DNA of 64,000 nucleotides from a virus (Duplodnaviria > Caudoviricetes): IMG/VR virus record IMGVR_UViG_3300010344_000600, positions 1-64,000 of that record. The stretch is one strand, 5' to 3'. The notes under the pieces were generated by a model that ran no database searches, was not told where the DNA came from, and saw only the letters and a list, made by a program, of their open reading frames with translations. The translations under genes and the position numbers were made by a program. Below are positions 19,301 through 40,227 of this stretch, piece after piece; the first letter of the stretch is position 1; each line of letters opens with the position of its first letter.

Positions 19301-22300
19301 AGCCCGTTCAACAATAACCCAAACATTCAGGCGCGGTACTTTGGCCCCTATAACCGAAGCGGTGAGTTGATTGAAAAAGAGACCGTCGTCTCGCTGAATC
19401 GCAACCCCGATGAGAGAGTATTTCCTTATCGGCTTATGCACGTCAATATGGTCAGCAAACCGCAGATATCGCTTGTCGATAAGCGTTTCAAGACACTTTC
19501 TGATGCGGTTGAAGCGACTCGTGAAGCCTTGGTTGTGGCTGAGAAGAACGCCCCTACTGAAAACAAGGACGCTGAAGTTAGCGCTGAATTCAACCAGGAG
19601 GCAACTGAATCCGCGCCTGGTGAAATAAATACAGATATTGCAGAGAATGCGCAAAATCCTGTTGCAAACGAGGATGATGCACAGAATACCGCTTCAGAAC
19701 TGCCCTTCGGTATCGAGATCAAGTCTTTCCAGCACACCAAAACCGGAGAAACCAAGTTCGCTGTCGTCGTTCCCGTCCGCACATCGAGCGAGGACTATCA
19801 GACACTCAACAAGACAGCGATCAAGCACCGCGGGCGCTACTCGTCGTTCAAGGGGTCCGGCGCGGTGCCGGGATTCCTGTTTGGCAGCAACGAGAATGCG
19901 GTTGCCTGGGCGAATGATCCGGCGGTCGCGGGGGTGTTGAAGGGGTATGAGAAGGCCGACGAAACAAAGAGCGAGGCGGCGACCCCGAAAAAGCCTGAAG
20001 AAAGCAACCAGGAGCGCAGCTTTCGTAAATGGGGGGAGAACTACAACACCGTCGTCAACACGGCTGATCTGTCGTCGGTATCCCTTGCCGACCTCGAACG
20101 CGCCGATAGTTGGGCGGACAGCTTCATTGCATCAGAGCGGAGGAAGGGATGGGACGGTGGCGCCGTCAATGAAACTATCATCAATGCCATGGCGCCCGAC
20201 GTGGCGGCGATCAAGGCCGAGTTATCTAAGCGCTATGCCGAGCGCGATGCGCGGTTGGAAAGTGCAAAGACCGGCGCTGTTCTGGCCAAAGCCGGAAGCA
20301 TTCTGCTGGACGAGTACGGCGAAAACGAATGGTCTCTTGATGCCGACTTAATTGACGATGTTGCAGCACGGAATTATGTAACGATCCGCCAGGGAATGAT
20401 GGGAGAACGAAAGCAGGCCGTTACTCCCTACGAAATCAAGAAGCGCATTGCTGAAGATGCGAAGTTCAGGGCCGAGCATCCGAACAAGTCGAAGGCAGAA
20501 GAAAACACCCCTTCGGCAAGTGATGCTGTTCCTACCGAAGCAACCCCCGCTTCGATACCCTATCAATACTTGCTCACTGGCGAACTATGGGACGCCATGA
20601 GCTACAGTCAGCACGAGGCGATTGCCAACGGCTATATTGGGGGCATGCGCGCTGTCGTACATCGTCTGTCAGGTTCCAAGTGGGCCGATATCGGACCGGG
20701 CGAACGGAAGTCGCTGCAGGAGTCCTACGACAAACTGGAACAACAGCGCGAGTCGAGCCGCAAGGCCGATGAATCGCAGGAAGTAGCCCGCGCCGCTGCC
20801 GAGGCCGAGGTTTTCGAGGCGATGCGCCAGGTTCCGGCCGTTATCAATGCGGCGACCAACAGCCCGCACAATTTAGATGTCGAGATCGAGCGCCAGGTAG
20901 CGCAGTGGCTTGGGGATCAAATACACGCGGCGGCGATTGCCGGCGATGGCGACCGGGCGCGGGCACTCTCCAGCCTACTGGCCGACAACAAGCCGGTACT
21001 GCCGCCATCCTTCTTCGAGGGGTTGAAAGAATCGCTCAAACAGGCTGAGGCGATCGACAAAGAGGATGCGCTGGCCGAAAAAGGACATGACCCGGCGAAT
21101 CTCGCCTACGTTAAAGCCGAGCTACAGGCTGATCAGAAGGACGCTTTCCTGCAGGGATGGGCGCATGCCCTGGCCGGCAAGACGAAGTCGACGCTCCCGG
21201 GCAATGCAGCAGCGGCCAAGGGATACGATACCGCACGCGAATGGCTGACGACGCCGGAAGGGCGCGCAGCGTTCTCCGGAAAGCGGGCGAAGAAGCTGGA
21301 AAACACCGGGGCCGACCTGCGCCGCTGGTTCGACAAACAGAAAGCCAAAATCCGCGATGATAGCGACAACGAAGCGGTGATTGCGGCGCTTGATCTGGCC
21401 ACCGGCCGCGCCGACCTGATGCGCGGCATGGTCGCCGATCTGGCAACTCCCGGAACGCTGCGCTGGATGGAGCAGATGCGCTACGGCGTGATGCCATTCA
21501 AGCAGTGGATTACCGAGCGCGGCATGCTACAGCGGTTATACGGCCGAGTTGGTAACACGGATACGGCCCGCATGAGCCTCTACCTGGAGGGCAAGGCCTA
21601 CCTGAAAGATGATCTGGAGAATCCGGACGCGCCGCGTTCGTTCTTTGATGAAATCAAACTGGCCAGCACTCGGGAACAACGGATTGCCAAGCTGCGTGAC
21701 GCCGCACAGGAATACGCGACGCTGATGAGCCTGCTGACCGACGGGGTAAGAGCCGCTGGTACCGTCGAGGAAGCGGCGCGCGCGCTGCAGTCCGTCCTGT
21801 GGGGCGACGAATCGCAGGAAATGACGTTCAACGTCTACGACCAGAAGAACTACAGCGATACCGGGAAACTGGTAGCAACGCTGCTGTCGCACCCCGACCG
21901 TACCGCCTGGAGATTCGCGTGGAACGGCAAGAACCTGAGAGACCAGACCTACAGCCTGCGCGGACTGATCGATAAGGAGAATGATGCACTGACGACGACC
22001 AAGAAGGCGGCGCTGGTACCGCCTAGGCTGGATCACGTCGAGCGTACCGGTGAAGACTATCGCGGCGGGTCCAATGTCAGTCCGGAGCAGTTCAAGCGAA
22101 AATTCAACTTTGCCGACGTCGGTTTCGGAAAGTGGGTTAATTCTCGGCAGGATCAGGATCACTTGAATTATGCCTACGATGCTTTCCTCGATCTGGCCAA
22201 GTTGCTGAATGTTCCGCCGGAGTCGATCGCGCTCGGCGGGAAACTGCATTTCACGATCGGCGCGCTCGGACAAGGCAAGTTCGCCGCGCACTACGCGCCG

Positions 22301-25300
22301 TCGCAGCCGCATCCAGACGGAGGAACGGTACCAGTAATCAATGTCACCAACACGCGCGGCGATGGCACGGTCGCCCACGAATGGGCGCATGCGATGGACC
22401 TGACCCCACAGGAGCGGCTGTCTGTCGAAGGGGATTATGCGCATCTGGCGCGGGCGATCTCGATAATCAAGGCCGATCTCAAGTACGCCTATCACTTTGA
22501 TGCAGTCAAAGCGGGCGTCATGCGCATGCTGGGCGGTGATGCATGGTGGAAAGGCGACAAGCGATCGGCACAAACCGATGCCGGGCGGCTGGAAAACGCA
22601 CGCCGGGCGATTGACTACTACAGCGGAGCCAGTCACCAGCTTTCGACGTACTACAAGGAGGCTATTAAGCTCGACGGCAACAAGACCAAAGACCCGTACT
22701 GGTCGAATGATCTGGAGTTGTTCGCCCGCGCCTTTGAAGGCTGGACTGGCGACGCGCTTAATGGCACGTCAACCTACCTCGTCAACCCGGAATGGTCCGG
22801 CGAGGGCATGGTGACGGACAAGACGCACCGAGGTACGCCGTATCCCTTGGGCGAAGAACGTGAACGCTTTGCCCAATGGTTCGACGCCCTCGCCAAGTCG
22901 ATGGTCTACGATGCAGAAATCAAAGCACTGCGCCTCGATGCGTTGAAATGGGCCGAGAATCGGCCGAAGCATGGAGATGAGTGGAAAACGGCGCTCGATG
23001 ATCTGCGCGCCTCGCTACCGGCTATTCTTAAACAGGTCAAGCAGGAGCAGGCCGAGAAAGAAGCGACAGAAAGCGCGGCGCGTGATGAGGCGCGGACGAT
23101 GGCCGTCGGGGATGTGATTCGCGCGCGGCGCATGAATAACGGGCTGTCCTCGCGTTTCCCTGATCCGTTAACGATCACCGCTGTCACTCCGACACCGGAC
23201 GGCCTCGGCGTGCCGCGGATCTCATTCATGGTTGATGACCCAGCCGGAGTAAAGCCGACCGAGCATACCTATACCGGCGAGTTCTTTGAGGTCATGGAGC
23301 GAGCAACTGATCGCGCGCTCAAGGAAGCCGCAGCAGCCAAGACCGAAGCAGAATCCAGTGCGCCAGCCATTGAGCCGACCGGAACACTGTCCGATACTGA
23401 CTATGAAAGGCTGTTCGATGAAGCGGCGGCCGAACTGAGCGAAGCGGCAGCCGAACAACCGGAATCACCGGTGACGGCCGCGTTGCCTGGTGGATGGACG
23501 GTTGAGGACGTCAAGGAGATTCAGGCACTCGTCAACGCCGGAAAGATCGTTTTGGTGGCCGATGAGAAACTCGGCATACCGACCATTCACGACTTTTCTG
23601 GACGGTCGGCGCATCTTGGGTTTGGCACCTTCCGTCTCAGTACGCCGGAATTTGAAGTGCTGTTCGACGGCGGCGCGGCGATGCACAATACGCCATCTGG
23701 AAAAGGCTATACAGTCGTCCTGGTGAATAGCGGAACGTTCCCCTACGATGAGGCGGGCGTCAAGGCAACGCTGCAAGGGTTGCTGTCTGGAACCGGTACT
23801 GCCGAGACAGCCATAGCCGCAGAAGACAAGGGAAGCATGCCGGAACCTGACGGCCAGCCGGACAAGAAAGACGAACAACCCAAGCCCGCCAAGAAGCCAC
23901 GGCCCGGAAAACTACCAAAACTGGACGATCAAGTTCAAAAGACCGCATCAGCATTGATCGCCGACGCGGCCAAGATGGGCGTCAAGGGCGTCGACGAGGC
24001 GCTGACCGGACTCGTCAAACTGTTCGGTGGCGGGGCCGGAAAGCTCATGTCGTTCCCGGCTGGCATGGACGAGGATACCTACAAGTCGGCTAAACCGCAC
24101 TTCGAGGCAGCGCTCAAGAGTTTCCAGGAAGCGGGCATGTCGCTGAAAGACCTGTTCAAATGGCTGATCGAGAAGTTTGGCCTCGGGATCAAGCCCTACG
24201 CGCTGCACTTTGCCAAGGAGAGCGCGCTGTCGACAGATCTCGGCGAGAAACCAAGCGCGCGCCTGGCAGTATCAGGCTTTGTGCAGAAGCAGATGGCCAA
24301 GAGCGAGGCATTTACCAGCCGGCAACTGTTCGACGAGGCCGATCGCGCCTTTGGTGGAACACAAGCTGAGGGCAAGTATTCGCCGAAGGATGCTTACGAC
24401 GCGATGGAATCCGGTGTGAACCAGTACCTCCTGGCAACCCCGTTCCCGATCGCTGTTGAGGCCGATAAGGCCGCCGATATCGCTTCGTTGCTTCAGGACA
24501 AGATTAGGATACTTCCGACGCAGACCCGGCGCGATGCGGAAATGGACGAGTTTCAGCAGTTCTCGACGCCGCCGGCGCTGTCCTATGTCGCTAACTGGGT
24601 AGCGGCGATCAAGCCAGGCGAGATCATGGCCGAGCCATCGGCCGGAACCGGCGATCTGGCGGTATGGGCGAAGAAAGCGGGCGCTGACCTGATCCTCAAT
24701 GAGCTCTCAAGCCGGCGCGTGTCCGGGTTGAAAGAGTTGTTCCCTGGCGCTCGGGTGTTTTCTGAAAACGCCGAGCAACTGCACAACGTCCTGCCGATCG
24801 ATGCGGTACCGACTGTCGTGGTGATGAACCCGCCGTTTTCTGCAACGGCTGGCCGCGCCGCGGGAACGCGCGATACGATGAATGGCGCCCGGCATATCGA
24901 ACAGGCATTGAAACGCCTGACGCCGAATGGCCGACTGGTAGCCATCGTCGGACAGGGGATGGCCGCCGATCGCCCGGCGTTCAAAGAGTGGTGGAAATCT
25001 ATTTCAGCGACCTATAATGTAAGAGCCAACATCGGGATTGACGGCTCGGAGTACGCGAAATACGGCACCACCTTCGACAATCAAATACTCGTTATTGACA
25101 AGGACGGACCGACGCAAGGCGTAGTGCTGACCGGAAAGGTAGCGAGAGTCGCCGAATTGCCGGCTTTACTGGAGAAAATCCGTGATACTCGACCGCAACC
25201 CACTCGACCCAATCGCCCGGGCGAATCAGATGCCGATCAACCGGGCGGCAGCGACCTTTCTGACCAAGACGGACTGGGGTATCAACCCGGCGGCGATCTG

Positions 25301-28300
25301 CGTCCTGACACTGATGCGCTGGGGTCTGGAAAACGGCCTAAAGGCAAAGGGAATAAACGAGGCGGGCGGCTGGATCAGCAGTCTGGCGGAACGCCGGGGG
25401 CCGCTGGGGATGACGCAACTGGTGACCGGGGAGCAGGAGGGGGAGGCCAATCTAACGGAAACGGACCTGATGACGGAAACGGATCCGCTGGGAGCAGCGG
25501 CGATGCTACTGGAAAGTCTGGTGCTGAACTACAAAGCGGGGTTGTAGGCCTCGAAGCCATTGACGCAAAGAAGAACACGGACGAAATATCCGATTCCGTT
25601 TTCGAGAACTACTATCCGCAGCGCCTCTCTGTTCCGGGGGCCAAACCACACCCCGGCCGGCTGGTACAGTCCGCGGCGATGGGCGCCGTCGAGCCGCCTG
25701 CTCCAACCTACGTGCCTAACCTGCCAAAGAAGGTGATCGATAAGGGGTTGTTGTCGATCGCGCAGATCGAGTCCGTTGTTTATGCCGGGCAGGCGCATAA
25801 CCAGATGCTACCGAATGGCGAACGGCGCGGCTTCTTCATCGGCGATGGAACCGGGGTCGGAAAAGGCCGTGAAATCTCCGGAATCATCCTCGATAACCTG
25901 CGGCAAGGGCGCGACAAGGCGGTATGGGTGTCGTTCAATGAAGGCCTGTTCACCGACGCCAAGCGCGACATGACCGGTATCGGGGCTGACCCGGAGCAAC
26001 TGTTCTGGCTGGGCAAGACAAAGGCCGACGCCGCTATCACCGCCAAGCGCGGCGTCCTGTTTACAACCTACAGCACGCTCGGGCGCGGAGGAAGCAAGAA
26101 GCAGGCAACAGCCGACGCGACGACCGGAAAGAGTAAGCCGGCCAAAACGCGCGGCGACCAGATCGTCGAATGGCTGGGCGAAGACTTTGATGGGGTCATC
26201 GTCTTCGATGAGGCGCACTCGATGGGAAATGCTATCGAGATGCGTGGACGACGCGGAAAGAAGAAGCCATCGGCGCAGGCGATCGCCGGAATTGATCTGC
26301 AGAAACGACTGCCCAAGGCGCGCATCGTCTATGTCTCGGCAACCGGAGCAACCGAGCTCTCCAACCTGTCCTACGCTTCGCGCTTAGGCTTGTGGGGCGA
26401 AGGAACGCCGTTTGCGACACCGATCAAGTTCATCAATGATGTTTCAGCAGGCGGGGTCGCAGCGATGGAGTTGATCGCGCGCGACATGAAGGCGCTCGGC
26501 ATGTATATCGCGCGCTCACTATCCTACGATGGCGTCACTTATGAGCGGCTTGACCATGAATTGACGCCGCTACAGACCGATATCTACAACGAACTTGCAA
26601 AGACCTGGCAGACGGTACTGCTGAATGTTAACGAGGCTCTTGGAATAACCGGACAGGACATGAGCGGCGACGCCAAGAGCGCGGCGCTATCGGCCTTCTG
26701 GAGCACGCATCAACGATTCTTCAATCAGGTCATCACGTCCATGCAGACGCCGACGGTGATCGAGAGCATGCGTCAGCAGATCGCCGCCGGTCATGCTGTC
26801 GTTATCCAACTGACTAATACCAACGAAGCCGAGCAGGAGCGCCAGGTCGCGCGTGCTCAGGCAACCGATACAGCCCTTGAGGAACTTGACTTTACGCCAC
26901 GTCAAGCGCTGATGGACTACGTGCGCAACGGGTTCCCAGTAGCGGCCTACGAGACGTATGTCGACGATAACGGGAATACACGCTCCCGGCCGGTCGTCGA
27001 TTCCGAAGGAAATCTTGTGCAGGACCAGGACGCCGTGGCCATGCGTGACCAACTGCTCGGAACGCTTGAGCAGATCCGGGTACCTGAGAATCCAATCGAC
27101 GCGATCATCAACGCCTTCGGCTCGGATAAGGTAGGCGAGGTCACTGGGCGAAAACGTCGCTTTGTGCAGACGCGCGACGAGGACGGAAACCTCAAGATCG
27201 TTGAGGAAAAGCGCGGATCACATGCGGCCAAGAACGATGCTGATTCCTTCCAGGACGATAAGAAGCCGATCCTGATCTTTTCTCAGGCAGGCGGTACCGG
27301 ATACTCGTTCCATGCCTCAAACGAGGTCAAGAACCAGCGGCGACGAATTCACTACATCCTGCAGCCGGGGTGGCGTGCTGACGTGGCGATCCAGGGAACC
27401 GGTCGGACGCACCGCACGAACCAGGCCAATGAGCCGCATTACGCGCTGCCGACGACGAATCTAAAGGCCCAGAAACGATTTGTCTCGACCATCGCCCGGC
27501 GCATGGACCAGATGGGTGCGCTAACCCGCGGGCAACGGCAGGCGGCCGGGCAAGGACTGTTCTCGGCGGCGGATAACCTTGAGAGCCAGTACGCGATTGA
27601 CGCGCTCGATATGTTCTTCAACGACCTGTATTCCGGGAAGACGCCACTCAATTTCAACGACATTACGCAGGCCATGGGGCTGACCGGACTGATCAATGAG
27701 GACACTGGGGGGCTGAATACCAGCAGGTTGCCGGAGATACCGCAATTCCTGAACCGCTTGTTGTCGTTGCAGACGCACGAGCAGGATGCCGTTTTTGATG
27801 AATTCTCGAAGCGGCTCGATGAAATCGTAGCCTACGCCGTGCAGAACGGAACATTCGATAACGGACTGCAGACGCTGCGCGCTGAATCGATCGTCAAGAA
27901 GCGTGACGAGGTTGCTTACGTAGACCCGAGGACGGGCGCTGAAACGCGCTATATCGAGGTCGACGTAACGAATCCTATCCGATACACAAAATGGAAGGAC
28001 GCCTCAGCAATCAAGGGGTTTCCTGACTTCAAGGGATGGTTTAAGGATCAGCATGGACGCCTATTCGGATTCCGCGATCTTGGGGATCGCGTCGATGCTG
28101 CCGGAAAGACTGTTCGCCGTGGCGCCAAGTACGACACGCGGGGACGGACGATCTACGTCGACAATGCGGCTGATGTCCTGCAGGGATACCGCTACATCCA
28201 CAAAGACGGGCTCTCGGTGAAAGAGACGATCGCTATCCCGATGAATATCGCCGACATGCCCGCCGCCTGGGCGGCCGAGATTGAGGTGGCACCGAAGAAA

Positions 28301-31300
28301 TCGACACAACTTAACCGACTGGTCGTCGGGGTTATCTTGCCGGTGTGGGATCGGGTGCGTGGTCGCTCGACAATCGTGCGGCTGCAGACCGACGATGGCG
28401 AACGGATGATCGGGCGCTTATTAACTACGAAGGATGCGGAGGCAACGCTAAAGAATCTTGGTCTCGGTTCATCCGTGTCGAAACTATCTACAGCGGAAGT
28501 GCTGTCGCGTATCCTCGCCGGGGAGAAGGCGATCCTCGGTAACGGATGGGAAATCAGCCGGGTCAAGGTATCAGGGGAAGATCGCCTAGAACTGAAATCG
28601 TCGTCTGGATACTTTGCCAACGGGGATCAGTCGATCCTCAAGTCGCAAGGCGTATTCTTTGAGCGCATCCAGTGGAACGAGCGCGCCTTCATTCCGATGG
28701 GGGAACAGGCGGAATCTGTCTTCAAGCGCGTCACTGAGTCGCGGCAGGTCGTAGATCTAATAGGTAGCAGCAAGAAAGCACAGGATGATGCGTCCGAGAC
28801 AGTTTTCTCCATGGGTAGCGGCGAAGTGCGCATCTCGACTGCCGACAAAGCCGTCTACGGCATGGCCAACGAAGGTCGCAGCGCCGCCGAGATCCTGGGT
28901 TTCATCCAGGCATCGTCGCGGAACCCCTTCTATCGCCAGTTGGCCAAGTTACTGCTCAAGACCGGGATCAACCCATCGGTAACAGTCGGTGACTCCAAGG
29001 GCTGGAAATTCAACGCCGGCCGGGACAACAAGTATTCGGCGGCCTACAACCCAAAGACGGATGCGATATCGCTGTTCCGTCCGGCATCGGCTGAGCGGCA
29101 TGCGTTACACGAGATGGTACACGCAGCAACCATCAAGGCATTACAGAAACAAGGGCTTTCCTCGCTCAAGATGCGCGCGCTATTCGCGCATGTGAAGAAG
29201 TCCGGCAAGCTCAAGGGCATGTACGGCATGACGGATATCGACGAATTCATGGCCGAAGCCTTCACAAATCCATTCTTCCAGGAGAAATTGCGCTCTGTGT
29301 CCGCGCCGAGTGGAATGAATGGACTCAAGAACGCATGGCACTGGTTCGTGCGCGTGGTGAGCAAGATCCTCGGGTTGGAACAAGGTGATGAAACTGCACT
29401 TTCTGCTGTGTTGAGTATTGGTGTTGGGGTGATGCGGGAGAACAAGCAAGCCAACAATAGCGAATCTACTCGTTCTGGCTATACTGAGAGCATGGCTAAA
29501 GACAACCTTGACCCAGACGACAAAGAAGCGGCCTTCGTTCAAAGCAATGTCGAAGGAAAATCACTGCTTGAGGTTGCGCAATGGATTGAATCAGCCGGGG
29601 CGCCTTCCGAGCGCCTGATCGCCAGCAAGGTTATCGATCGCTTGCAGATGTTGCAGCGGGCCGGCGTTGCTCTGAATTTCAAGGTAGCGCATGTGGGCGA
29701 CAAAATACCCGTCTCCCTGGCTAACGCACGTGGGATGGCCTCCTATAACTTCGGGAAGAACGATTCCAGAATTGATGTATGGGTCAATGGATCTGACGTA
29801 ACGGGCAAGGTCGGCATGAGTCCCTACATCGTGCTGCATGAGCTCGTCCATGCGGCAACAATGGGAGCAGTTCGCCTTGGAAACTATAAGGTAGCTGCGG
29901 GAACAAAGTTGGCGGCCGACGTCGCTGACCTGTACGCCGTCAGCAATGCAGTAAATACCCACATCAACCAGAGGATTAAAGCCGCGAAGCAGGGGAAAAC
30001 GAAACTTACGCCGTTTGAACAAGCGATGTTTGATGGCGACATCAACGCTTTCAGTACGCCGAACGAAACCCTGGCCTGGGCGCTGACGGATGCGAAGGCA
30101 CAAAGCTACCTTGAATCCATTCCCTATAAAGGAAAGTCGGCATGGACCGCCTTCGTTCAGGCGATCCGTAACCTGCTGGGTTTGAGCCCGTCTTCCGATA
30201 CGGCTTTGTCTGAAGTGCTGCGCGTAGCCGAAGCCTTGATGAGCGACAACATCAACGAAATGATACCGATCGCCAATGCGACGGGTACGGCCATGACGGT
30301 GCAGTCTTCGTCGGTGCAGGAGGTGGCGACGAATGATGACATCCGCTACTCCACTTCCGCCGACCCATCCGCCATCAACGGCACCCCCGATATCGAGCGC
30401 TGGCGCGACATCCTCAAGAGCCCAGATGTGCTGAAGTCGCTGCGTCAGCAAATCGCTGATCAGTTCCAGTCGCAAAAGACCTTCAACTGGTGGCACCGTA
30501 CCATTGGGTCGCAGTACCACAAGGCCAAGGTCGACGCCGATTTCGCCAAGGTCTATGAACGCGCTCAGCAGTATCTCGACGATACGAGCCGGCTGGCCAA
30601 CGAAGCGGCCGACCTCGCCCCCGGTCTCCTACCCAAAACCAACAACATGGCCGATGCGGCGCGCGGCATCTACCATATGTTCGGTGACAAGAAGGATGCG
30701 CAGGCCATTGCCGGCCCGGTCTTCCATGGCACGATGCTGGAAAAGACCTTCACCGATGACGAGTTGCGCAATCCGCCCGAGGATATTTTCGGGAAACCGC
30801 AGTTCGCGCCCCTGACAGACAAGCAGATCAAGCTGTACCGGCAGTACCGGGCGACGATCGACAAGAGCCTCGACGACCTAGCCATCTCAGAAATGGCCCG
30901 CTTGTCGCGGACCTCAAAGATGCTGCAAGCGCCGCAGGGGCTTTCCTTGCGTGCGACGGTGGCCTTCTATCGGGAACAGTACGAAGCGGCCCTGGAGAAC
31001 GCGCAAACCGCCTTGGCGGACGTGAAACAGCAGCACGCCGACGATATGGCCATGCTCGAATCCGCGGCACAGGATCAAGCCAGCAATGCCGACGAGCGGA
31101 AAAAGTACGCCGGTCTGCGCGAAGCCATGAAAACACGCCAGGCCGCCGAGCTATCCGCCGCCCAGCGCACCGTCGACAACCTGGAAGAGCTGGACAAAGG
31201 AATCGTCGGACGCGCCGGGATCATCGAGAAGTTGAAGGGCGAGGGCTACTCGCCCCTGATGCGCTTCGGCCAATACACGGTCGACGTGTTCTATGAGGAC

Positions 31301-33235
31301 GAGAACGGAAAGCCGATGAAGGATACCGACGGCAACGAAATGCGGCCGTTCTTCGGCATGTACGAGTCCGAGGCGATGGCCAACAAGGTCGCCCGTGCGC
31401 TGACCGCCGAGTACCCGGATGCGACGGTCAAGAAAGGAATCATGTCACAGCGTGATTTCTCGCTGTTCAAGGGCGTTACACCCGAGACGCTGGAAATCTT
31501 TGGTAAGTTGATGGGCGCTGAGCAGGATGAAGCCTTCCAGAGTTACCTGAAACTGGCGGTCAACAACCGATCGGCCATGAAGCGTCTAGTGCATCGCATG
31601 GGGGTCGCTGGTTTCAACGATGATCCGACGCGCGTACTGGCGTCGTTCATCACCAGTAACGCGCGGGCGGCGGCCGGCAATTATCACCTGGGCGAGATGC
31701 TGCGCGAGACCTCGGCCATCCCCAAGGGCAAGGGCGACGTCAAGGACGAAGCGGTCAAGCTCCTACAATACCTGCAAAACCCATCGAGTGAAGGCGCTTG
31801 GTTGCGTTCGCTGCTGTTTGCCAACTTCCTGGGGGGCTCGGTCGCGTCAGCACTGGTCAATCTGACGCAGACGTTCATTACGACGGTTCCCTTCCTGCAT
31901 CAGTTCGGTGGCAATACGACCGGCAATGTCCTCTCCGCAATGAAACTGGCGGCCGGGCGCATGGGCACCAAGAAGAAGACGACCGGCGACGCGGTCCTCG
32001 ACCAATCTTTGAAGCGGGCCGAAGAAGAAGGCGTTGTTTCCCCGCACGAGATTCACATGCTGCAAGGCGAGTCCATGCGCTCCGGGGTCCTCACCGGAAA
32101 CCGCTTCACGCGCAATCTGATGAAGGGTTGGGGTTCGTTCTTCTCCGTGGCCGAGCAGTACAACCGGGAAGTAGCCTTCATTGCCGCCTACAAGGTGGCG
32201 CAAACCAAGGGCATGAGCGGAGAACAGGCGTATCAGTTTGCCGTCGATGCGGTCAATCAGACGCAGTTCCAATACTCGAAGGCATCACGCTCGAACTGGG
32301 GGCGCGGGCCGGTAGGGGCAAGTCTGATGATATTTAAGACGTTCACCCTGAGCTACCTGGAGTTTGTCAAACGGCTACCGCCCAAGGAGCGGGCTCTGGC
32401 CATGGCCGTCCTGTTTGTCGCGGCCGGCGCGCAAGGTTTGCCGTTTGCCGACGATCTGGATGATTTGCTCGACACCATCATGCAATCGCTTGGATTCGCA
32501 TGGAATACCAAACAGGAGAAACGCGCGGCCATCGCCAAGGTGCTTGGCGCGGACGCAGCGGGCTTTATTCAGTACGGGGTGAGTTACGGCCTTCCGATCG
32601 ACCTATCGGGCCGCCTTGGCCTTGGAAACCTGATTCCCGGCTCTGCTGCCTTCAAGCCATCGGAAACCAATAAGACGCGCGACGTGGCTGAATTCTTCGG
32701 CGCGGCGGGCGGATTGTTGCAGCAGGCCATGAAAGGCTTTGAGAAAGTGCAGTCCGGTGATGTGCTCGGCGCGGCCAAGGCGCTGGCGCCGAAAGCAGCG
32801 GCCGACGCCATTAAAGGTCTCGACATGGCGAACAAGGGCTACTACACCGATACAACGGGCCGCCGAGTCGCAGACGTATCGGGATTGGATGCGCTGGTCA
32901 AGGGAATAGGATTCCAGCCTGAAGTCATTGCCGAGGATGCCCGCGCCCGCTCGATCGTGCAGGACCAAATTACCCTGGATCGTTCGGTGCAGGGTCATAT
33001 CCAGTCGATGTGGTCACAAGGGTTGATCGAGAATGACCCGGAGAAGGTGTCCAACGCACAAGCCGCTTTGCGTGACTGGAATGAAAAGAACCCGGAGAGT
33101 AAGATTGTCATCAGCCGAGCGGCCATCTTGCGCCTCGTGCAGCAGGCCCGATTGACGTCCGATCAACGGATGGTGAATACGATGCCCAAACAGATGAAGG
33201 CGCAGTTGCGACAGACGCTGGAAGGCAACTATTGA
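16358..33235 (+). CDS. Giant polyvalent protein (5625 aa), DarB-like in logic: InPase-like + LPD1-like zincin + N6-adenine MTase + Strawberry-notch helicase + two HExxH peptidases + PLxRFG + C-terminal helical region
   Basis: Motifs IENPKGSERSG..YGY..GADGDQVD; FGKWV..HEWAH..ELFARAFE; FSTPP/EPSAGTG/NPPF; GDGTGVGKGR/DEAH/QGTGRTHRTNQ; HEMVH; HELVH; YSPLMRFG. Confidence 0.9.
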   Translation: MANTSVTDIDQDELNQARKALGTSEVDPKELELARKKLANPEMNDPGFVTSIKSGVGQQASALARSAKDIPVIGGIGAFDRLGKWGDRVQENNPMGIQSLSDVIDSPVETLKEGAGNAIAQMPANVASGAAGRVLGGILGARFGNAALGQKIGAWAGMGLPTLAQEYGGIRQTQDQEVANGNPEADDKGRALAGALPAAAVEFGMGPQRLLGRMIGEGFEGSAKQLAAKFAKETAGMTPAQASRHVIKSAGKDILRNGAEEGAEELVQNPLEAWGAHQDPMSSETIDQSLTGAALGFSGGLALGSPMTAMQHAKAKSMADNGLVAETPAAPPSPRGPLSAAAAAGQAAMPTAAPVAPADPLAERVAAMAPTIESKDLIRQMRSDPRFGPETITDALHAWAIGRNPALHPSVRAQALDNLEQLFGPRNFNMGQTAPSADEGVLPGEAQRIPNDPGTGQLAAPPTYPALPASVDTPVDTSAAPVPAPLIDSMPSETSNPSLPATPSIPSVETSPSIPSSTVVPDDDMEAKTLEAFNNVFGEDPSATTSETKPAEAAPSVPAAPDPIAIAEAQTQARVDAARADEQRTAARNLIRDRVAHGYTEIKDGALLNPKTGATHPLNNPAEFLVAHNALRNRIDEAAHTAATSHQNDLTQPSDAQKEAGNYAKGHVEWNGLNLAIENPKGSERSGTDPNGKAWSVTMPGHYGYVKKTLGADGDQVDLYLGNAPHSKKVFVVDQIDADTGKFDEHKAIGNVRDEAEATKLYDAGFSDGKGPQRRGAITEMSVDQFKDWVKKGDTTKALAYKVPNMAPSPKESARSKPRLGESPQEVWAAIKAANGGIIVNGRTARPAIRVPGLTGTFSLANDFTLDKLVAGGKGLIKATREENKAVDAAVDQDRAEVVAMSQWGQHAGDKNGNQKVIQVLHSPSGNSYQTQPNPTQPEENNATIPEAAQAIEAEAQGSEQQPAVENDESRFVAAAAELGLSPFNNNPNIQARYFGPYNRSGELIEKETVVSLNRNPDERVFPYRLMHVNMVSKPQISLVDKRFKTLSDAVEATREALVVAEKNAPTENKDAEVSAEFNQEATESAPGEINTDIAENAQNPVANEDDAQNTASELPFGIEIKSFQHTKTGETKFAVVVPVRTSSEDYQTLNKTAIKHRGRYSSFKGSGAVPGFLFGSNENAVAWANDPAVAGVLKGYEKADETKSEAATPKKPEESNQERSFRKWGENYNTVVNTADLSSVSLADLERADSWADSFIASERRKGWDGGAVNETIINAMAPDVAAIKAELSKRYAERDARLESAKTGAVLAKAGSILLDEYGENEWSLDADLIDDVAARNYVTIRQGMMGERKQAVTPYEIKKRIAEDAKFRAEHPNKSKAEENTPSASDAVPTEATPASIPYQYLLTGELWDAMSYSQHEAIANGYIGGMRAVVHRLSGSKWADIGPGERKSLQESYDKLEQQRESSRKADESQEVARAAAEAEVFEAMRQVPAVINAATNSPHNLDVEIERQVAQWLGDQIHAAAIAGDGDRARALSSLLADNKPVLPPSFFEGLKESLKQAEAIDKEDALAEKGHDPANLAYVKAELQADQKDAFLQGWAHALAGKTKSTLPGNAAAAKGYDTAREWLTTPEGRAAFSGKRAKKLENTGADLRRWFDKQKAKIRDDSDNEAVIAALDLATGRADLMRGMVADLATPGTLRWMEQMRYGVMPFKQWITERGMLQRLYGRVGNTDTARMSLYLEGKAYLKDDLENPDAPRSFFDEIKLASTREQRIAKLRDAAQEYATLMSLLTDGVRAAGTVEEAARALQSVLWGDESQEMTFNVYDQKNYSDTGKLVATLLSHPDRTAWRFAWNGKNLRDQTYSLRGLIDKENDALTTTKKAALVPPRLDHVERTGEDYRGGSNVSPEQFKRKFNFADVGFGKWVNSRQDQDHLNYAYDAFLDLAKLLNVPPESIALGGKLHFTIGALGQGKFAAHYAPSQPHPDGGTVPVINVTNTRGDGTVAHEWAHAMDLTPQERLSVEGDYAHLARAISIIKADLKYAYHFDAVKAGVMRMLGGDAWWKGDKRSAQTDAGRLENARRAIDYYSGASHQLSTYYKEAIKLDGNKTKDPYWSNDLELFARAFEGWTGDALNGTSTYLVNPEWSGEGMVTDKTHRGTPYPLGEERERFAQWFDALAKSMVYDAEIKALRLDALKWAENRPKHGDEWKTALDDLRASLPAILKQVKQEQAEKEATESAARDEARTMAVGDVIRARRMNNGLSSRFPDPLTITAVTPTPDGLGVPRISFMVDDPAGVKPTEHTYTGEFFEVMERATDRALKEAAAAKTEAESSAPAIEPTGTLSDTDYERLFDEAAAELSEAAAEQPESPVTAALPGGWTVEDVKEIQALVNAGKIVLVADEKLGIPTIHDFSGRSAHLGFGTFRLSTPEFEVLFDGGAAMHNTPSGKGYTVVLVNSGTFPYDEAGVKATLQGLLSGTGTAETAIAAEDKGSMPEPDGQPDKKDEQPKPAKKPRPGKLPKLDDQVQKTASALIADAAKMGVKGVDEALTGLVKLFGGGAGKLMSFPAGMDEDTYKSAKPHFEAALKSFQEAGMSLKDLFKWLIEKFGLGIKPYALHFAKESALSTDLGEKPSARLAVSGFVQKQMAKSEAFTSRQLFDEADRAFGGTQAEGKYSPKDAYDAMESGVNQYLLATPFPIAVEADKAADIASLLQDKIRILPTQTRRDAEMDEFQQFSTPPALSYVANWVAAIKPGEIMAEPSAGTGDLAVWAKKAGADLILNELSSRRVSGLKELFPGARVFSENAEQLHNVLPIDAVPTVVVMNPPFSATAGRAAGTRDTMNGARHIEQALKRLTPNGRLVAIVGQGMAADRPAFKEWWKSISATYNVRANIGIDGSEYAKYGTTFDNQILVIDKDGPTQGVVLTGKVARVAELPALLEKIRDTRPQPTRPNRPGESDADQPGGSDLSDQDGLGYQPGGDLRPDTDALGSGKRPKGKGNKRGGRLDQQSGGTPGAAGDDATGDRGAGGGGQSNGNGPDDGNGSAGSSGDATGKSGAELQSGVVGLEAIDAKKNTDEISDSVFENYYPQRLSVPGAKPHPGRLVQSAAMGAVEPPAPTYVPNLPKKVIDKGLLSIAQIESVVYAGQAHNQMLPNGERRGFFIGDGTGVGKGREISGIILDNLRQGRDKAVWVSFNEGLFTDAKRDMTGIGADPEQLFWLGKTKADAAITAKRGVLFTTYSTLGRGGSKKQATADATTGKSKPAKTRGDQIVEWLGEDFDGVIVFDEAHSMGNAIEMRGRRGKKKPSAQAIAGIDLQKRLPKARIVYVSATGATELSNLSYASRLGLWGEGTPFATPIKFINDVSAGGVAAMELIARDMKALGMYIARSLSYDGVTYERLDHELTPLQTDIYNELAKTWQTVLLNVNEALGITGQDMSGDAKSAALSAFWSTHQRFFNQVITSMQTPTVIESMRQQIAAGHAVVIQLTNTNEAEQERQVARAQATDTALEELDFTPRQALMDYVRNGFPVAAYETYVDDNGNTRSRPVVDSEGNLVQDQDAVAMRDQLLGTLEQIRVPENPIDAIINAFGSDKVGEVTGRKRRFVQTRDEDGNLKIVEEKRGSHAAKNDADSFQDDKKPILIFSQAGGTGYSFHASNEVKNQRRRIHYILQPGWRADVAIQGTGRTHRTNQANEPHYALPTTNLKAQKRFVSTIARRMDQMGALTRGQRQAAGQGLFSAADNLESQYAIDALDMFFNDLYSGKTPLNFNDITQAMGLTGLINEDTGGLNTSRLPEIPQFLNRLLSLQTHEQDAVFDEFSKRLDEIVAYAVQNGTFDNGLQTLRAESIVKKRDEVAYVDPRTGAETRYIEVDVTNPIRYTKWKDASAIKGFPDFKGWFKDQHGRLFGFRDLGDRVDAAGKTVRRGAKYDTRGRTIYVDNAADVLQGYRYIHKDGLSVKETIAIPMNIADMPAAWAAEIEVAPKKSTQLNRLVVGVILPVWDRVRGRSTIVRLQTDDGERMIGRLLTTKDAEATLKNLGLGSSVSKLSTAEVLSRILAGEKAILGNGWEISRVKVSGEDRLELKSSSGYFANGDQSILKSQGVFFERIQWNERAFIPMGEQAESVFKRVTESRQVVDLIGSSKKAQDDASETVFSMGSGEVRISTADKAVYGMANEGRSAAEILGFIQASSRNPFYRQLAKLLLKTGINPSVTVGDSKGWKFNAGRDNKYSAAYNPKTDAISLFRPASAERHALHEMVHAATIKALQKQGLSSLKMRALFAHVKKSGKLKGMYGMTDIDEFMAEAFTNPFFQEKLRSVSAPSGMNGLKNAWHWFVRVVSKILGLEQGDETALSAVLSIGVGVMRENKQANNSESTRSGYTESMAKDNLDPDDKEAAFVQSNVEGKSLLEVAQWIESAGAPSERLIASKVIDRLQMLQRAGVALNFKVAHVGDKIPVSLANARGMASYNFGKNDSRIDVWVNGSDVTGKVGMSPYIVLHELVHAATMGAVRLGNYKVAAGTKLAADVADLYAVSNAVNTHINQRIKAAKQGKTKLTPFEQAMFDGDINAFSTPNETLAWALTDAKAQSYLESIPYKGKSAWTAFVQAIRNLLGLSPSSDTALSEVLRVAEALMSDNINEMIPIANATGTAMTVQSSSVQEVATNDDIRYSTSADPSAINGTPDIERWRDILKSPDVLKSLRQQIADQFQSQKTFNWWHRTIGSQYHKAKVDADFAKVYERAQQYLDDTSRLANEAADLAPGLLPKTNNMADAARGIYHMFGDKKDAQAIAGPVFHGTMLEKTFTDDELRNPPEDIFGKPQFAPLTDKQIKLYRQYRATIDKSLDDLAISEMARLSRTSKMLQAPQGLSLRATVAFYREQYEAALENAQTALADVKQQHADDMAMLESAAQDQASNADERKKYAGLREAMKTRQAAELSAAQRTVDNLEELDKGIVGRAGIIEKLKGEGYSPLMRFGQYTVDVFYEDENGKPMKDTDGNEMRPFFGMYESEAMANKVARALTAEYPDATVKKGIMSQRDFSLFKGVTPETLEIFGKLMGAEQDEAFQSYLKLAVNNRSAMKRLVHRMGVAGFNDDPTRVLASFITSNARAAAGNYHLGEMLRETSAIPKGKGDVKDEAVKLLQYLQNPSSEGAWLRSLLFANFLGGSVASALVNLTQTFITTVPFLHQFGGNTTGNVLSAMKLAAGRMGTKKKTTGDAVLDQSLKRAEEEGVVSPHEIHMLQGESMRSGVLTGNRFTRNLMKGWGSFFSVAEQYNREVAFIAAYKVAQTKGMSGEQAYQFAVDAVNQTQFQYSKASRSNWGRGPVGASLMIFKTFTLSYLEFVKRLPPKERALAMAVLFVAAGAQGLPFADDLDDLLDTIMQSLGFAWNTKQEKRAAIAKVLGADAAGFIQYGVSYGLPIDLSGRLGLGNLIPGSAAFKPSETNKTRDVAEFFGAAGGLLQQAMKGFEKVQSGDVLGAAKALAPKAAADAIKGLDMANKGYYTDTTGRRVADVSGLDALVKGIGFQPEVIAEDARARSIVQDQITLDRSVQGHIQSMWSQGLIENDPEKVSNAQAALRDWNEKNPESKIVISRAAILRLVQQARLTSDQRMVNTMPKQMKAQLRQTLEGNY
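18300..18740 (+). other. Inorganic-pyrophosphatase-like (InPase) domain of the giant protein
   Basis: AQKEAGNYAKGH...IENPKGSERSG...HYGY...GADGDQVDLYLG...DEHK...SVDQFKDWV. Confidence 0.8.
22080..22900 (+). other. LPD1-like zincin metallopeptidase domain of the giant protein
   Basis: F.F..V.FGKWV..Q..LN.AYDA..DLA; HEWAH at 22376-22390; YWS...ELFARAFE; YP.GEER. Confidence 0.7.
24500..25170 (+). other. N6-adenine DNA methyltransferase domain of the giant protein
   Basis: QQFSTPP (motif X), EPSAGTG (motif I), NPPF (motif IV) in gamma order. Confidence 0.85.
25590..28760 (+). other. Strawberry-notch-type SF2 helicase (P-loop + helicase C) of the giant protein
   Basis: FFIGDGTGVGKGR, DEAH, YVSATGA, QPGWRAD.AIQ..GRTHRTNQ. 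Confidence 0.85.
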
Positions 33236-37482: not shown

Positions 37483-37570
37483 TCAGTTATCGTAGCCTCC
37501 TTGTCGATCGTTTTGTTTCGCAGTCCATTGCGGCCATACGCGCCGAGCGTCTATCCGCTCTGGAAATCCG
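37483..37570 (-). pseudogene. 3' remnant of the IS-disrupted DUF5131 gene
   Basis: Removing the IS and one TSD rejoins the frame: ...DVDGFGFPERIDARRVWPQWTAKQNDRQGGYDN*. Confidence 0.8.
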
Positions 37571-37595
37571 GGCTATCCGGATTTGATGGTGGAAA
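37571..37595 (+). repeat. Terminal inverted repeat (transposase-distal end)
   Basis: GGCTATCCGGATTTGATGGTGGAAA; extra subterminal TGGTGGAA at 37621. Confidence 0.9.
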
Positions 37596-37636
37596 CGACC
37601 GATGAGAGATAAATCATCTTTGGTGGAATCTTCCAT

Positions 37637-39004
37637 TCAAACCTCCGGGAAAGCGGTGAATCTGGCATGACAGATTTTGCAGATATGAAAGACCATATCC
37701 GGTCCGGAAACATCTTCACCTGCATACGGGACAACATGGTCAACAGTGAAAATCTCAGAGTCTGGATAAAGCCCGGTGCAGTTGGAGCACCGAGTCAGCG
37801 CAGCCTCAGAAGCGGCCCGGCGCGCTCTCAGCGTTCGCTTGTTGGTCGGGCTATTGGCGAACAGCAAGCGAGAACGAATCACTTCAAAGCTGTACCCACG
37901 GCCAGCGCGGTTAATCATCTTGGCTATCCCGTTCATGCTTTCCGTGTAGGCGTTGGTTGTCGGGAAGTCGAAATAGTTGAGGATTTCCGTTCTCCAGTTC
38001 TGCATGGCTCGCGTCAGTTCGTGGAACTCCTTGGTCATCGACGCCGGGATAGTGGCTGCAAAGGCGTCAAATGCGGCGATAGCCTTGGCTTTCGGAAGGT
38101 CGTAGATTCCGAACAGAGCCTCTTTGATGTTGTACGCAGCATCAATCTCCGGCTCGTTGTTCCGCCATCCGCTCAAGTTGAAGCGCTGTTTATCGCTCAG
38201 GTTGTGCTCTCTGGTCAGCAACTGGTGCTTGCTCTGCTTCCACGAGAGGCGCATCTTCTTATCTTTCCCCTTCTGGACGCGGATACGAACCTTGTCGATT
38301 GCCGAGTTAGCCATCTTGACGACATGGAACTTATCAATCACCACAGCGGCATTCGGAAGCATTTCTCTCGAAACGTCGCGGTAAGCCTGCCACATGTCGA
38401 TAGTCACAACGCGCACTTTGGACCGGTCTCGGAACTGGCTAAACCACCGGGAAACCATAGGCTTGTTCCTGCCAGACAGCATGTCAACAACACGCCGATT
38501 CTCAACGTCAGTGATGATTGCCCGGAATATCTTGTTCAAATGGTTCTCGTCCAGACCAAGCCACTCTGGAAGGTATGGGCGGTATTCGCCATCGGTAACG
38601 GCAATGTAGTCGGCAGCGATGTTCCGAATGGTCTTTTCATCGCAGCCGAGATGCTCGGAGAGGTGCTGGAAGGTGTCACGAAGGCATTGCTGCTCGATGT
38701 AGCGAAGACATCGCTCAGTCATGCGCCTGACTGCATCAACGCCACTCAACGGCTGCGGGAACGTCCCGCCGCACGCCCTGCACTTGTAGCGCTGGACCTT
38801 AGCAACGATTCGCGTAGGAGTTCCACGAATAGGGCTATCGAGGATAGTCACAGACCTTGGCCCATGCTTGTAAAGTTCTCCAACGACGCCACAGAGAAGG
38901 CAGAACTCAGGCTGCTTGGCGTATTCGGCACTGATGATTGTCTGGTCTTGCTGCTCTTCTATGCCGAGAACGGCCCAGTCTTTGAGTTGAAGGATGTCAG
39001 TCAT
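37637..39004 (-). CDS. ISL3-family DDE transposase with a C-terminal HNH-like zinc module
   Basis: N-terminal CxxC..CxxC zinc finger, LGLDE, TIDMW..Y, DKFHVV, TNA.TES.N..K...R..RGY.SF; tail CSNC..DHVVP..CKICH. Confidence 0.9.
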   Translation of the reverse strand: MTDILQLKDWAVLGIEEQQDQTIISAEYAKQPEFCLLCGVVGELYKHGPRSVTILDSPIRGTPTRIVAKVQRYKCRACGGTFPQPLSGVDAVRRMTERCLRYIEQQCLRDTFQHLSEHLGCDEKTIRNIAADYIAVTDGEYRPYLPEWLGLDENHLNKIFRAIITDVENRRVVDMLSGRNKPMVSRWFSQFRDRSKVRVVTIDMWQAYRDVSREMLPNAAVVIDKFHVVKMANSAIDKVRIRVQKGKDKKMRLSWKQSKHQLLTREHNLSDKQRFNLSGWRNNEPEIDAAYNIKEALFGIYDLPKAKAIAAFDAFAATIPASMTKEFHELTRAMQNWRTEILNYFDFPTTNAYTESMNGIAKMINRAGRGYSFEVIRSRLLFANSPTNKRTLRARRAASEAALTRCSNCTGLYPDSEIFTVDHVVPYAGEDVSGPDMVFHICKICHARFTAFPEV

Positions 39005-39760
39005 TTAGGCGGCCATATCAATTTTTGCCAAATGGCAGAAGATACCGCATTGCACCTCGGGTTCCGATTGATAATCGCCAGTCCCCGGCTGAAGCTCGTC
39101 AAGGAATGCGCGCTTCTCGTCAATTCGAATAATGCGGACGCCAAGCCGCCGCGACTCGGTAGCCATGCGCTGAAACTGAGCAGGGAAGTCCTGCCGAATC
39201 TTGTTCCAGTAGCCCATTCCTTGGGCTTTGCAGCATCCAATGCAGTTGTTATGGTGGTATCCAAGACCGTACATGACCGGCAGCGCGATTCCTGCATCCT
39301 TGACGATGGACAGGCAATCCTTGTGCTCCAAGCCACGTTCCATCAGCGGAGATTCGCAGGCGATGTTGTTGGCGGCGAGAAAGTCGTCCCATCTATCGGC
39401 CTCTTCGGCGCAATATCCAAAGACGTGAAAGTCGGTCGGAAGCTCGAATCTCTCCCTAACCTGCTTCTTGAGCAGCCGAGTGCAGGGAGCGCCACGCACG
39501 CCGGAAATGTACGACTCCTTTCGAAAGACTTCGTAGATAGAGCCGTCGTACTTATCGTTGATGAGGTTGGCAATCGGCACGCCAAACCACTTCTCGCAGT
39601 CGGCTGCGAAGCGGTCGTTATCCGGATGCTCTTCACGAACAATACAGCGAGCTACAACCAACGGAAGACGGCCAGCATTAGCCACAATCGCCAGTTTCGT
39701 TGCAACCGCACTAGCCGCCCCACAGCTAAACCAGCAAATTATTCTGGAAGGTTCAATCAT
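39005..39760 (-). CDS. PAPS-reductase-like/adenine-nucleotide alpha hydrolase (PP-loop) protein, IS cargo
   Basis: WFSCGAASAVA PP-loop, EEHPDN.RF, APCT..LKK, GY.HNNCIGC.K, C-terminal CG.FC; lies inside the TIRs. Confidence 0.75.
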   Translation of the reverse strand: MIEPSRIICWFSCGAASAVATKLAIVANAGRLPLVVARCIVREEHPDNDRFAADCEKWFGVPIANLINDKYDGSIYEVFRKESYISGVRGAPCTRLLKKQVRERFELPTDFHVFGYCAEEADRWDDFLAANNIACESPLMERGLEHKDCLSIVKDAGIALPVMYGLGYHHNNCIGCCKAQGMGYWNKIRQDFPAQFQRMATESRRLGVRIIRIDEKRAFLDELQPGTGDYQSEPEVQCGIFCHLAKIDMAA

Positions 39761-39808
39761 GATATTCCACCAGTTATTCCGGATTTACAGAGTATCATAT
39801 CTACAGTC

Positions 39809-39833
39809 TTTCCACCACTTATTCCGGATAGCC
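39809..39833 (-). repeat. Terminal inverted repeat (5' end)
   Basis: GGCTATCCGGAATAAGTGGTGGAAA on the minus strand; second subterminal copy TCCGGAATAACTGGTGGAA just inside. Confidence 0.9.
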
Positions 39834-40227
39834 GAAATCCGAAGCCGTCGACATCTTCTGCCAACCAGTCAAAGAACGAGCGCATCCTCGCCGGCCGCTT
39901 GGTCAGCACCTGATAGGTATGGCGCGTGGTAATAGACATGACCGCGAAGACGTCGGCAATGAATTCAAACGGAACATCCTCATGAAACAGGTCGGACATT
40001 GAATTGACGAAAATTCGGCGCGGACGTGCCCAGCGCAGTGGCTGGTCAAGGCGGTCAGGGTGGCAGGCCACGTCAGTGAACGCGCGCCCAGCGTAGGCCG
40101 GAACACGCACCATGCGAACCCAGTTGCGCTCGGCATAACAATGCTTGCACCCGGAGCTGACCTTGGTGCACCCGGTCGTCGGATTCCAAGTGGCATGTGT
40201 CCAGACAATTCCTGTTTTGGCGCTCAT
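39834..40227 (-). pseudogene. Phage Gp37/Gp68 (DUF5131) gene, 5' part, disrupted by the IS
   Basis: W..ATWNP.TGCTKVS.GCKHCYAE, RRIFVNSMSDLFHE, HTYQVLTKRP.RM. Confidence 0.85.

Follow-up and report, generated by a model that had tools for sequence, protein, structure and literature searches.

Positions 37571-39833 of the DNA analyzed here, the first 64,000 nt (hereafter the window) of the 82-kb IMG/VR virus record IMGVR_UViG_3300010344_000600 (Caudoviricetes), form an intact ISL3 element of 2,263 bp that encodes a transposase and one passenger, or cargo, gene. We put at roughly three in four the probability that this is a recently inserted, apparently intact "transporter" insertion sequence (IS) whose passenger is likely nucleic-acid-modifying and useful to the phage. 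Transporter IS is an established term (PMC9330008) for elements with an unrelated passenger between their inverted repeats, and here the cargo gene (39005-39760) lies wholly within 37571-39833. The content of the slot that the cargo occupies is exchangeable between divergent element backbones, and in the window this slot holds a cysteine-rich enzyme of about 250 amino acids (aa), from the 3'-phosphoadenosine 5'-phosphosulfate (PAPS) reductase superfamily, drawn from the ordinary phage gene pool.

Elements of the ISL3 family have inverted repeats of about 15-40 bp that start with GG, and they duplicate 8 bp of their target. In the window element the inverted repeats are 25 nt long, open with GGCTATCC and both begin GGCTATCCGG, and the 8-bp duplication is perfect; an exact 8-mer match at both termini would arise by chance at about 1.5e-5. 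The parts of the element and its edges are as follows.

37563-37570: target duplication on the transposase side, GAAATCCG, identical to 39834-39841.
37571-37595: terminal inverted repeat at the transposase end (GGCTATCCGGATTTGATGGTGGAAA), 84% complementary to 39809-39833.
37622-37629: subterminal copy of TGGTGGAA at the transposase end, read directly in the sequence.
37637-39004, minus strand: ISL3-family transposase of 455 aa, with its ATG at 39004.
39005-39760, minus strand: cargo gene of 251 aa, PAPS-reductase superfamily (PP-loop fold), with matches to PHROG 424, PDB 21fy_C and PADLOC SspD.
39765-39784: subterminal direct copy of the repeat core, 20 nt, 95% identical to 39810-39829.
39809-39833: terminal inverted repeat at the cargo end, forming the inverted pair with 37571-37595.
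39834-39841: target duplication on the cargo side, GAAATCCG.

The core copy at 39765-39784 lies 45 bp inward of the cargo-side end, with its last base 4 nt before the cargo ATG, and the cargo TAA (39007-39005) is followed at once, in frame, by the transposase ATG (39004). A preliminary description, made from the letters alone, had reported a perfect 8-bp duplication, 25-bp inverted repeats, subterminal repeats at both ends and a PP-loop/cysteine-cluster gene upstream of the transposase in the same frame across a TAA-ATG junction. All of these are present where they were placed, the two frames running 39760..39005 and then 39004..37637, with the cargo motifs in the first. Its assignment to ISL3 likewise stands: the transposase matches PF14690 (Zn_ribbon_ISL3), PF13542 (HTH_Tnp_ISL3) and PF01610 (DDE_Tnp_ISL3) above their cut-offs, NF033550 at 286 bits (cut-off 180; positions 2-369 of 370) and PHROG 5749 at E 1.6e-127.

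Two metagenome contigs, L003 and L004, have an ISL3 transposase gene preceded by a gene whose product (P0001) is 94% identical to the cargo. Because the two sequences agree at 99.9% starting 4 nt into the repeat, and their flanks are unrelated, cargo and transposase have moved as a unit in this sister element; the window copy itself is single, at one copy in the 82-kb record. The ends of the L003/L004 copies are irregular: the L003 flanks (187-194 versus 2481-2488) hold no matching 8-bp duplication (AAAAATTT versus GCAATAAG), and two of the four terminal bases differ in the L004 copy (1895-1903), which hints at recombination between copies or terminal damage. A third contig, L060, carries a cargo 80% identical to that of the window, with the same ends and arrangement and a frameshifted transposase. 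At L060:3571-5018 the transposase is split into a 94-aa zinc-ribbon open reading frame (ORF) and a 388-aa DDE ORF that overlap by 4 nt, either through a frameshift mutation or through programmed frameshifting. Finally, L018:3497-4535 is a decayed remnant, with a cargo homologue, an ISL3 transposase reduced to its first 93 codons and no left end; decay of this kind may be a route by which an IS-borne cargo becomes a fixed phage gene. The preliminary description had allowed that other copies might lack the cargo, an objection that, for this cargo, fails because cargo and ISL3 sequence recur together in L003, L004, L060 and the L018 remnant. Of the further copies and empty sites it proposed to look for, copies were found in other contigs and no empty site was found in viral contigs.

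These comparisons also bear on whether the repeats and the 8-bp duplication are a coincidence, or whether they bound nothing more than an IS that inserted next to a resident phage gene. There is one copy in the genome and no empty site was recovered, as such an account would have it, but more than 10 independent elements show the inverted repeats, the subterminal copy at 45 bp and a cargo placed within the repeats, and the unit is intact in the different flanks of L003 and L004. We regard this explanation as already contradicted, with scarcely any probability left to it.

Relatives of the window transposase at 42-59% identity come from viral contigs, from Massilia, Paraburkholderia, Polaromonas and Accumulibacter genomes, from Ralstonia replicons and from Burkholderia phage Bcep22, and the element belongs to an ISL3 subgroup in phages and prophages of Burkholderiales-type hosts. 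Subgroup ends take the form GGNTNTCCGGAWTA-N4-TGGTGGAA and share a [CT]CCGGAWTA-N-TGGTGGAA-like motif, present in two copies 45 bp apart at the left (cargo-side) end and in one copy at the right. The terminal-repeat motif of the window is also found at the ends of L007-L016 and L071-L073, all of which likewise carry cargo inside the inverted repeats; the 45-bp spacing between copies of the transposase-binding core is common to L007-L010, L014, L016 and L071-L073, and L011 has a perfect target duplication, TTAATAAA. Transposases of the subgroup start with MTDIL and end in a zinc-ribbon/HNH-like tail. Between the left end and the transposase gene there is a slot for one gene (sometimes two), and in 17 elements, nearly all of those compared, the stop codon of the upstream ORF abuts or overlaps a conserved ATGAC(N)GACAT transposase start. 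The slot contents of the sister elements are listed below.

L007 and L017: C5 methylase (PF00145).
L014: PHROG 757 methyltransferase.
L066: N6_N4 methylase, in two copies on one plasmid.
Vibrio phage K256 and about 20 sister phages: D12/Dam-type methylase, beside a more distant transposase (33% identical).
L076: PHROG 954 methyltransferase.
L064: class I S-adenosylmethionine (SAM) methyltransferase beside "ISRso21".
L015 and L016: second PAPS-like type.
L072: third PAPS-like type, which passes PF01507.
L011, L013 and L079: PHROG 12600.
L008-L010, L074, L077 and Bcep22 gp33/34: other small phage proteins.

Across these elements the slot holds DNA methyltransferases of at least five kinds, unrelated PAPS-reductase-like proteins of three types, or small phage genes. 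The three PAPS-like types cannot be aligned with one another by BLASTP except over an 83-residue stretch at 25% identity, so the superfamily was recruited at least three times.

Comparison with L003 points to exchange of the slot contents independently of the backbone. The window and L003 cargo genes share 91% nucleotide identity (synonymous divergence, dS, 0.40), whereas their transposases share 58% of nucleotides and 48% of amino acids (dS ~1.7), and the ends of the two elements are as diverged as the transposases. A 40-nt sliding comparison rises from about 0.5 to about 0.9 identity at the cargo start and drops to about 0.5 again where the stop codon meets the ATG; because the high-identity block stops exactly at the ORF limits, this pattern indicates a recent cassette exchange between divergent ISL3 backbones. 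The window transposase is 58% identical to that of the methylase-carrying L007 versus 49% to that of L003, and L010 and L011 have transposases 93% identical and different cargo. In a tree of the cargo family (MAFFT alignment, FastTree), the window and L003 cargo pair with support of 0.97, and their sister, with support of 0.989, is P0002, a phage-resident gene without a transposase. A single capture of the cargo is not supported, as the node joining all IS-borne copies reaches just 0.39. Since P0002 is sister to the IS-borne pair and the node joining all IS-borne copies is so weak, genes both enter and leave the slot.

In most cases a member of the cargo family is simply an ordinary phage gene with no IS attached. 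Homologues at 76-79% identity reside in early, replication and recombination modules of phages, with no transposase, and ISL3 sequence is nearby in just one of the 42 viral loci that have a homologue. Isolated phages of Verrucomicrobia, Vibrio, Pseudomonas, Pseudoalteromonas, Rhizobium and other hosts carry genes 39-51% identical that are annotated as PAPS reductase. The database relatives exceed 7,400, at about 250 aa; among the best 120, at 70-94% identity, none has a precomputed Pfam domain. The nearest Atlas clusters are mostly viral, with PF01507 in just 10-29% of their members.

Alternatively, the gene upstream of the transposase could be no passenger but an accessory to transposition, for example a regulator or a targeting protein. 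Its fixed position, with a stop codon abutting the transposase start in many elements, is what such a role would predict. Unrelated enzymes fill the same position, though, no ISL3 gene is near 41 of the 42 viral loci that encode a homologue, and many ISL3 members lack an upstream gene altogether; we consider this explanation very improbable.

The preliminary description was also right to place a PAPS-reductase-like passenger inside the repeats. The cargo matches PHROG 424, labelled PAPS reductase, at E 1.4e-39, and it has no match in Pfam (E up to 5) or NCBIfam, including PF01507 and the CysH models. It carries the motifs WFSCGAASAV, NNCIGCC and QCGIFC. In a family alignment and profile built from 24 members (A1), four cysteines are invariant (C93, C173, C176 and C242), kept even in relatives only 24% identical, and this set suggests ligands of an iron-sulfur (Fe-S) cluster. 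The loop SCGAAS is nearly invariant in the family, and the canonical SGGxDS loop of ATP pyrophosphatases is not present. An AlphaFold (AF2) model of the cargo has a mean predicted local distance difference test (pLDDT) score of 83.8 and a disordered C-terminal tail. Foldseek searches with this model returned the [4Fe-4S] PP-loop sulfurtransferases LarE, TtuA and NcsA along with reductases of PAPS and adenosine 5'-phosphosulfate (APS); the latter (2goy, 4bwv, 7rge and 6vpu) matched at E 2e-4 to 1.5e-3 with template modeling (TM) scores of about 0.5. Because TM-scores lie at 0.38-0.50, the structural likeness denotes fold class only, and the cargo is predicted to adopt an adenine-nucleotide alpha-hydrolase fold resembling APS/PAPS reductase.

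The 24-member profile matches one solved protein, PDB 21fy chain C, at E 2.2e-75 over profile positions 3-246. It is a full-length homologue (residues 25-266 of 270) that shares all the cysteine motifs of the cargo, and is known here by the depositors' name alone, PptA; no relevant paper on it was found in the literature searched, which left most subscription journals outside its coverage.

A genuine assimilatory PAPS/APS reductase, encoded by an auxiliary metabolic gene that raises sulfur assimilation by the host and that the IS merely acquired, would account for the PHROG 424 label and for APS/PAPS reductases giving the best Foldseek TM-scores (~0.5). Furthermore, SCGAAS and the C-terminal QCGIF resemble the loop and ECGLH tail of CysH-type enzymes. 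Set against this are the absence of any match to PF01507 even at E 5, or to the NCBIfam CysH models, the residence of the family in early, replication and recombination modules of phages and not with sulfur genes, and a slot shared with DNA methyltransferases. An assimilatory role is in our view quite improbable.

We favor instead the reading of a passenger that acts on nucleic acid. In this mechanism transcription of the cargo and transposase genes probably reads through from the phage operon, and the abutting stop and start codons would couple transposase translation to that of the cargo. The cargo, like the DNA methyltransferases of the sister slots, would modify phage nucleic acid, the likeliest mark being a DndC/SspD-like sulfur or other adenylate-dependent DNA modification. 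Phage DNA marked in this way could escape modification-dependent restriction such as Dnd or Ssp, and a useful passenger would make the IS beneficial to the phage, not purely parasitic. A role in nucleic-acid modification or anti-restriction has, we judge, slightly better than even odds, because sister elements carry DNA methyltransferases in the same slot, the cargo has a match to the SspD model, and a gene swap in Vibrio phage conferred an anti-Dnd phenotype. The anti-restriction proposal of the preliminary description thus gains support that is comparative in kind.

The SspD hidden Markov model (HMM) in PADLOC, for which no curated cut-off is set, is matched at E 5.7e-8 and 30.8 bits over positions 36-195 of 277 (~160 residues). 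The cargo resembles SspD and DndC in its PP-loop fold and in its cysteine cluster; it differs from them in having neither the SGGxDS loop nor SspABC or DndABDE partners, and it is shorter than DndC, with its own conserved C-terminal QCGIFC. In the Vibrio experiment, blue-type-specific genes of a phage were replaced by two red-type-specific genes, one encoding a PAPS-domain-Dam fusion, and the phage acquired an anti-Dnd phenotype, infecting a Dnd-carrying host (Piel et al., bioRxiv 10.1101/2021.05.05.442762). This Vibrio crassostreae phage system is like the window element in that a phage PAPS-reductase-type domain is swapped between phages as an anti-defence module. It differs in the 479-aa length of the protein, in the fused methylase and in that no transposon was reported; its likeness to the cargo is one of domain description.

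The cargo might also act on RNA or a small molecule, as a tRNA-thiolase-like enzyme or a nucleotide or cofactor sulfurtransferase that the IS spreads as a beneficial passenger, with benefits such as shielding tRNAs from anticodon nucleases or altering nucleotide pools. The best Foldseek matches act on tRNA (TtuA and NcsA) or on a cofactor precursor (LarE), at E ~1e-4, and DNA phosphorothioation requires Dnd or Ssp partners, which the stand-alone cargo does not have. However, the TM-scores of 0.38-0.50 speak to fold class only, the match in the defence library is to SspD, a DNA-modification enzyme, and the equivalent slot in sister elements holds mostly DNA methyltransferases. We consider an RNA or small-molecule substrate unlikely, though less so than an assimilatory one.

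Several points weigh against a nucleic-acid-modifying passenger on a recently inserted IS. The SCGAAS loop is nearer to the degenerate loop of true PAPS reductases than to that of DndC, and there are no Dnd or Ssp partner genes in the element, which encodes only the cargo and the transposase. Several sister slots carry genes of unassigned function, so DNA modification does not cover all cargo. On the expression side, translational coupling is proposed from codon geometry only, and a scan of the minus (coding) strand of the element, which does not exclude a promoter, found no sigma-70-like consensus. As to mobility, the 82-kb record holds no second copy, and an exact 27-nt junction search of viral contigs for the empty site gave nothing. 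Finally, no biochemical or genetic work on the cargo family was found in the literature searched.

A more far-reaching reading, which we advance tentatively and hold clearly less probable than a modification role as such, is that phage ISL3 elements are a cassette-swapping delivery system for anti-restriction genes, with the conserved left end and transposase start as recombination anchors. Methyltransferases and PAPS-like enzymes would swap between backbones and with resident phage genes, and the cargo would be a single-protein DNA-modifying enzyme that mimics Dnd/Ssp self-marks, the mark being of phosphorothioate type or another sulfur modification. Bacterial cousins would carry defence or toxin genes in the slot, so that one architecture serves both sides. 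More distant ISL3 transposases (35-38% identical, N-terminus MPANILNLP) occur in bacterial chromosomes with an ORF that ends at the transposase start codon (bacterial genome contigs L087, L089, L095, L099, L108-L110, L113 and L136). The adjoining ORFs encode PIN-like DUF5615, Fic/DOC, HEPN, zeta-toxin-like kinase, BsuBI/PstI restriction endonuclease and YhcG nuclease proteins, and were placed by start-codon adjacency, not by repeats.

The element inserted as a unit into a phage DUF5131 gene, with the 8-bp duplication, and is co-oriented with the surrounding operon. The two parts of the interrupted frame are as follows.

39842-40227, minus strand: N-terminal half of the interrupted gene for a DUF5131 (Gp37/Gp68) protein (PF07505, E 1.2e-44, profile positions 1-122 of 243).
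37485-37562, minus strand: short 3' continuation of the interrupted frame, from an in silico reconstruction of the empty site.

The start codon of the interrupted gene is at 40227, the gene and the element share orientation, and the neighboring genes on both flanks are also on the minus strand. When the element and one copy of the duplication are removed in silico, the frame stays open for about 28 codons more, from the target duplication to a stop, and does not run into the C-terminal half of DUF5131. The target gene had probably been shortened before the insertion: the duplication is perfect, yet the N-terminal piece is the sole DUF5131 match in the 82-kb record, and the C-terminal half of the profile has no match anywhere in it.

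The locus is present in three activated-sludge sequencing runs, and no RNA run is listed among the runs that contain it. In one source-like run (X3) the assembly breaks exactly at the transposase-side repeat (window 37578-37592). A wastewater contig from another study (run X4) joins the repeat arms (window 37596 to 39809), skipping 2,212 nt; it has just 25 nt on one side, and we treat it as uninterpretable. The arm-joining contig and the assembly break could reflect a miniature repeat-only derivative or presence/absence variation. Elsewhere in the window, 16358-33235 on the plus strand is one 5,625-aa ORF whose product combines InPase, LPD1 and LPD5 domains with a helicase of the Strawberry-notch type (AAA_34/Helicase_C_4); this makes it a "large polyvalent protein", a class associated with anti-restriction functions that are injected. 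In another phage, a 4,602-aa protein with ddrB-ParB and helicase domains is encoded near a cargo homologue.

The window transposase extends beyond the ISL3 model in a tail (residues ~387-455; window 37637-37840) with a C-terminal CxxC...CxxC arrangement, in which an HNH-like "DH" is retained and residues 387-448 weakly match phrog_338 (HNH). In a tail alignment the HNH-like pattern (D/E)H...CxxC(H/N)xRF is kept in the window, L007, L009 and L008, and the histidine is gone in other members. Escherichia phage Fraca has an ISL3 homologue whose annotation is that of an HNH-domain protein. Among isolated phages, the sole relative at the DNA level is a 386-nt stretch of the transposase gene of Burkholderia phage Bcep22.

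ISL3 elements with passengers are already known. ISPst2 carries two passenger genes and has repeats GGGTATCCGGAATTTCTGGTTGAT (PMC6305408), which closely resemble the window ends, GGCTATCCGGAATAAGTGGTGGAA. Elements of the ISPst2/ISPpu12 type share with the window an ISL3 transposase, an 8-bp duplication and passengers inside the repeats; ISPst2 differs in that its passengers are an ArsR regulator and a permease and in that it resides on bacterial plasmids and chromosomes, whereas the window element sits on a phage replicon and carries a single phage-type enzyme abutting the transposase start. The nearest annotated name is ISRso21 of Ralstonia solanacearum (GenBank annotation), with a transposase 46% identical that starts MTDILDL. 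Its slot is alike in that a methyltransferase ORF overlaps the transposase start by one base, and it differs in its cargo, a class I SAM methyltransferase of 165 aa, and in its location on a bacterial megaplasmid; no paper on ISRso21 was found in the literature searched. The statement in the preliminary description that no ISL3 element with this cargo was known therefore holds in part: none was found in the literature, but passenger-bearing ISL3 elements, including one beside a methyltransferase as annotated, make the arrangement less unprecedented. Apparently new are a PAPS-like cargo on ISL3, a phage-associated subgroup with an exchangeable slot rich in modification enzymes, and sharp swap boundaries; none of these was found in the literature searched, which is weak evidence given the journal coverage noted above. 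A preprint by Silas et al. does not mention PAPS reductases.

IS elements in phage genomes are usually viewed as rare and harmful, because capsids limit genome size. The subgroup described here appears to pay its way, with one phage-useful gene carried per IS, and its slot has repeatedly been filled with putative DNA-modifying enzymes and was swapped recently between backbones otherwise just 58% identical in DNA. The element has the look of a vehicle for moving anti-restriction genes from phage to phage, and would offer a concrete route by which orphan methyltransferases and the widespread, uncharacterized phage "PAPS reductases" pass between unrelated phages. For the latter, a family with more than 7,400 database matches, guilt by slot predicts a role in restriction evasion.

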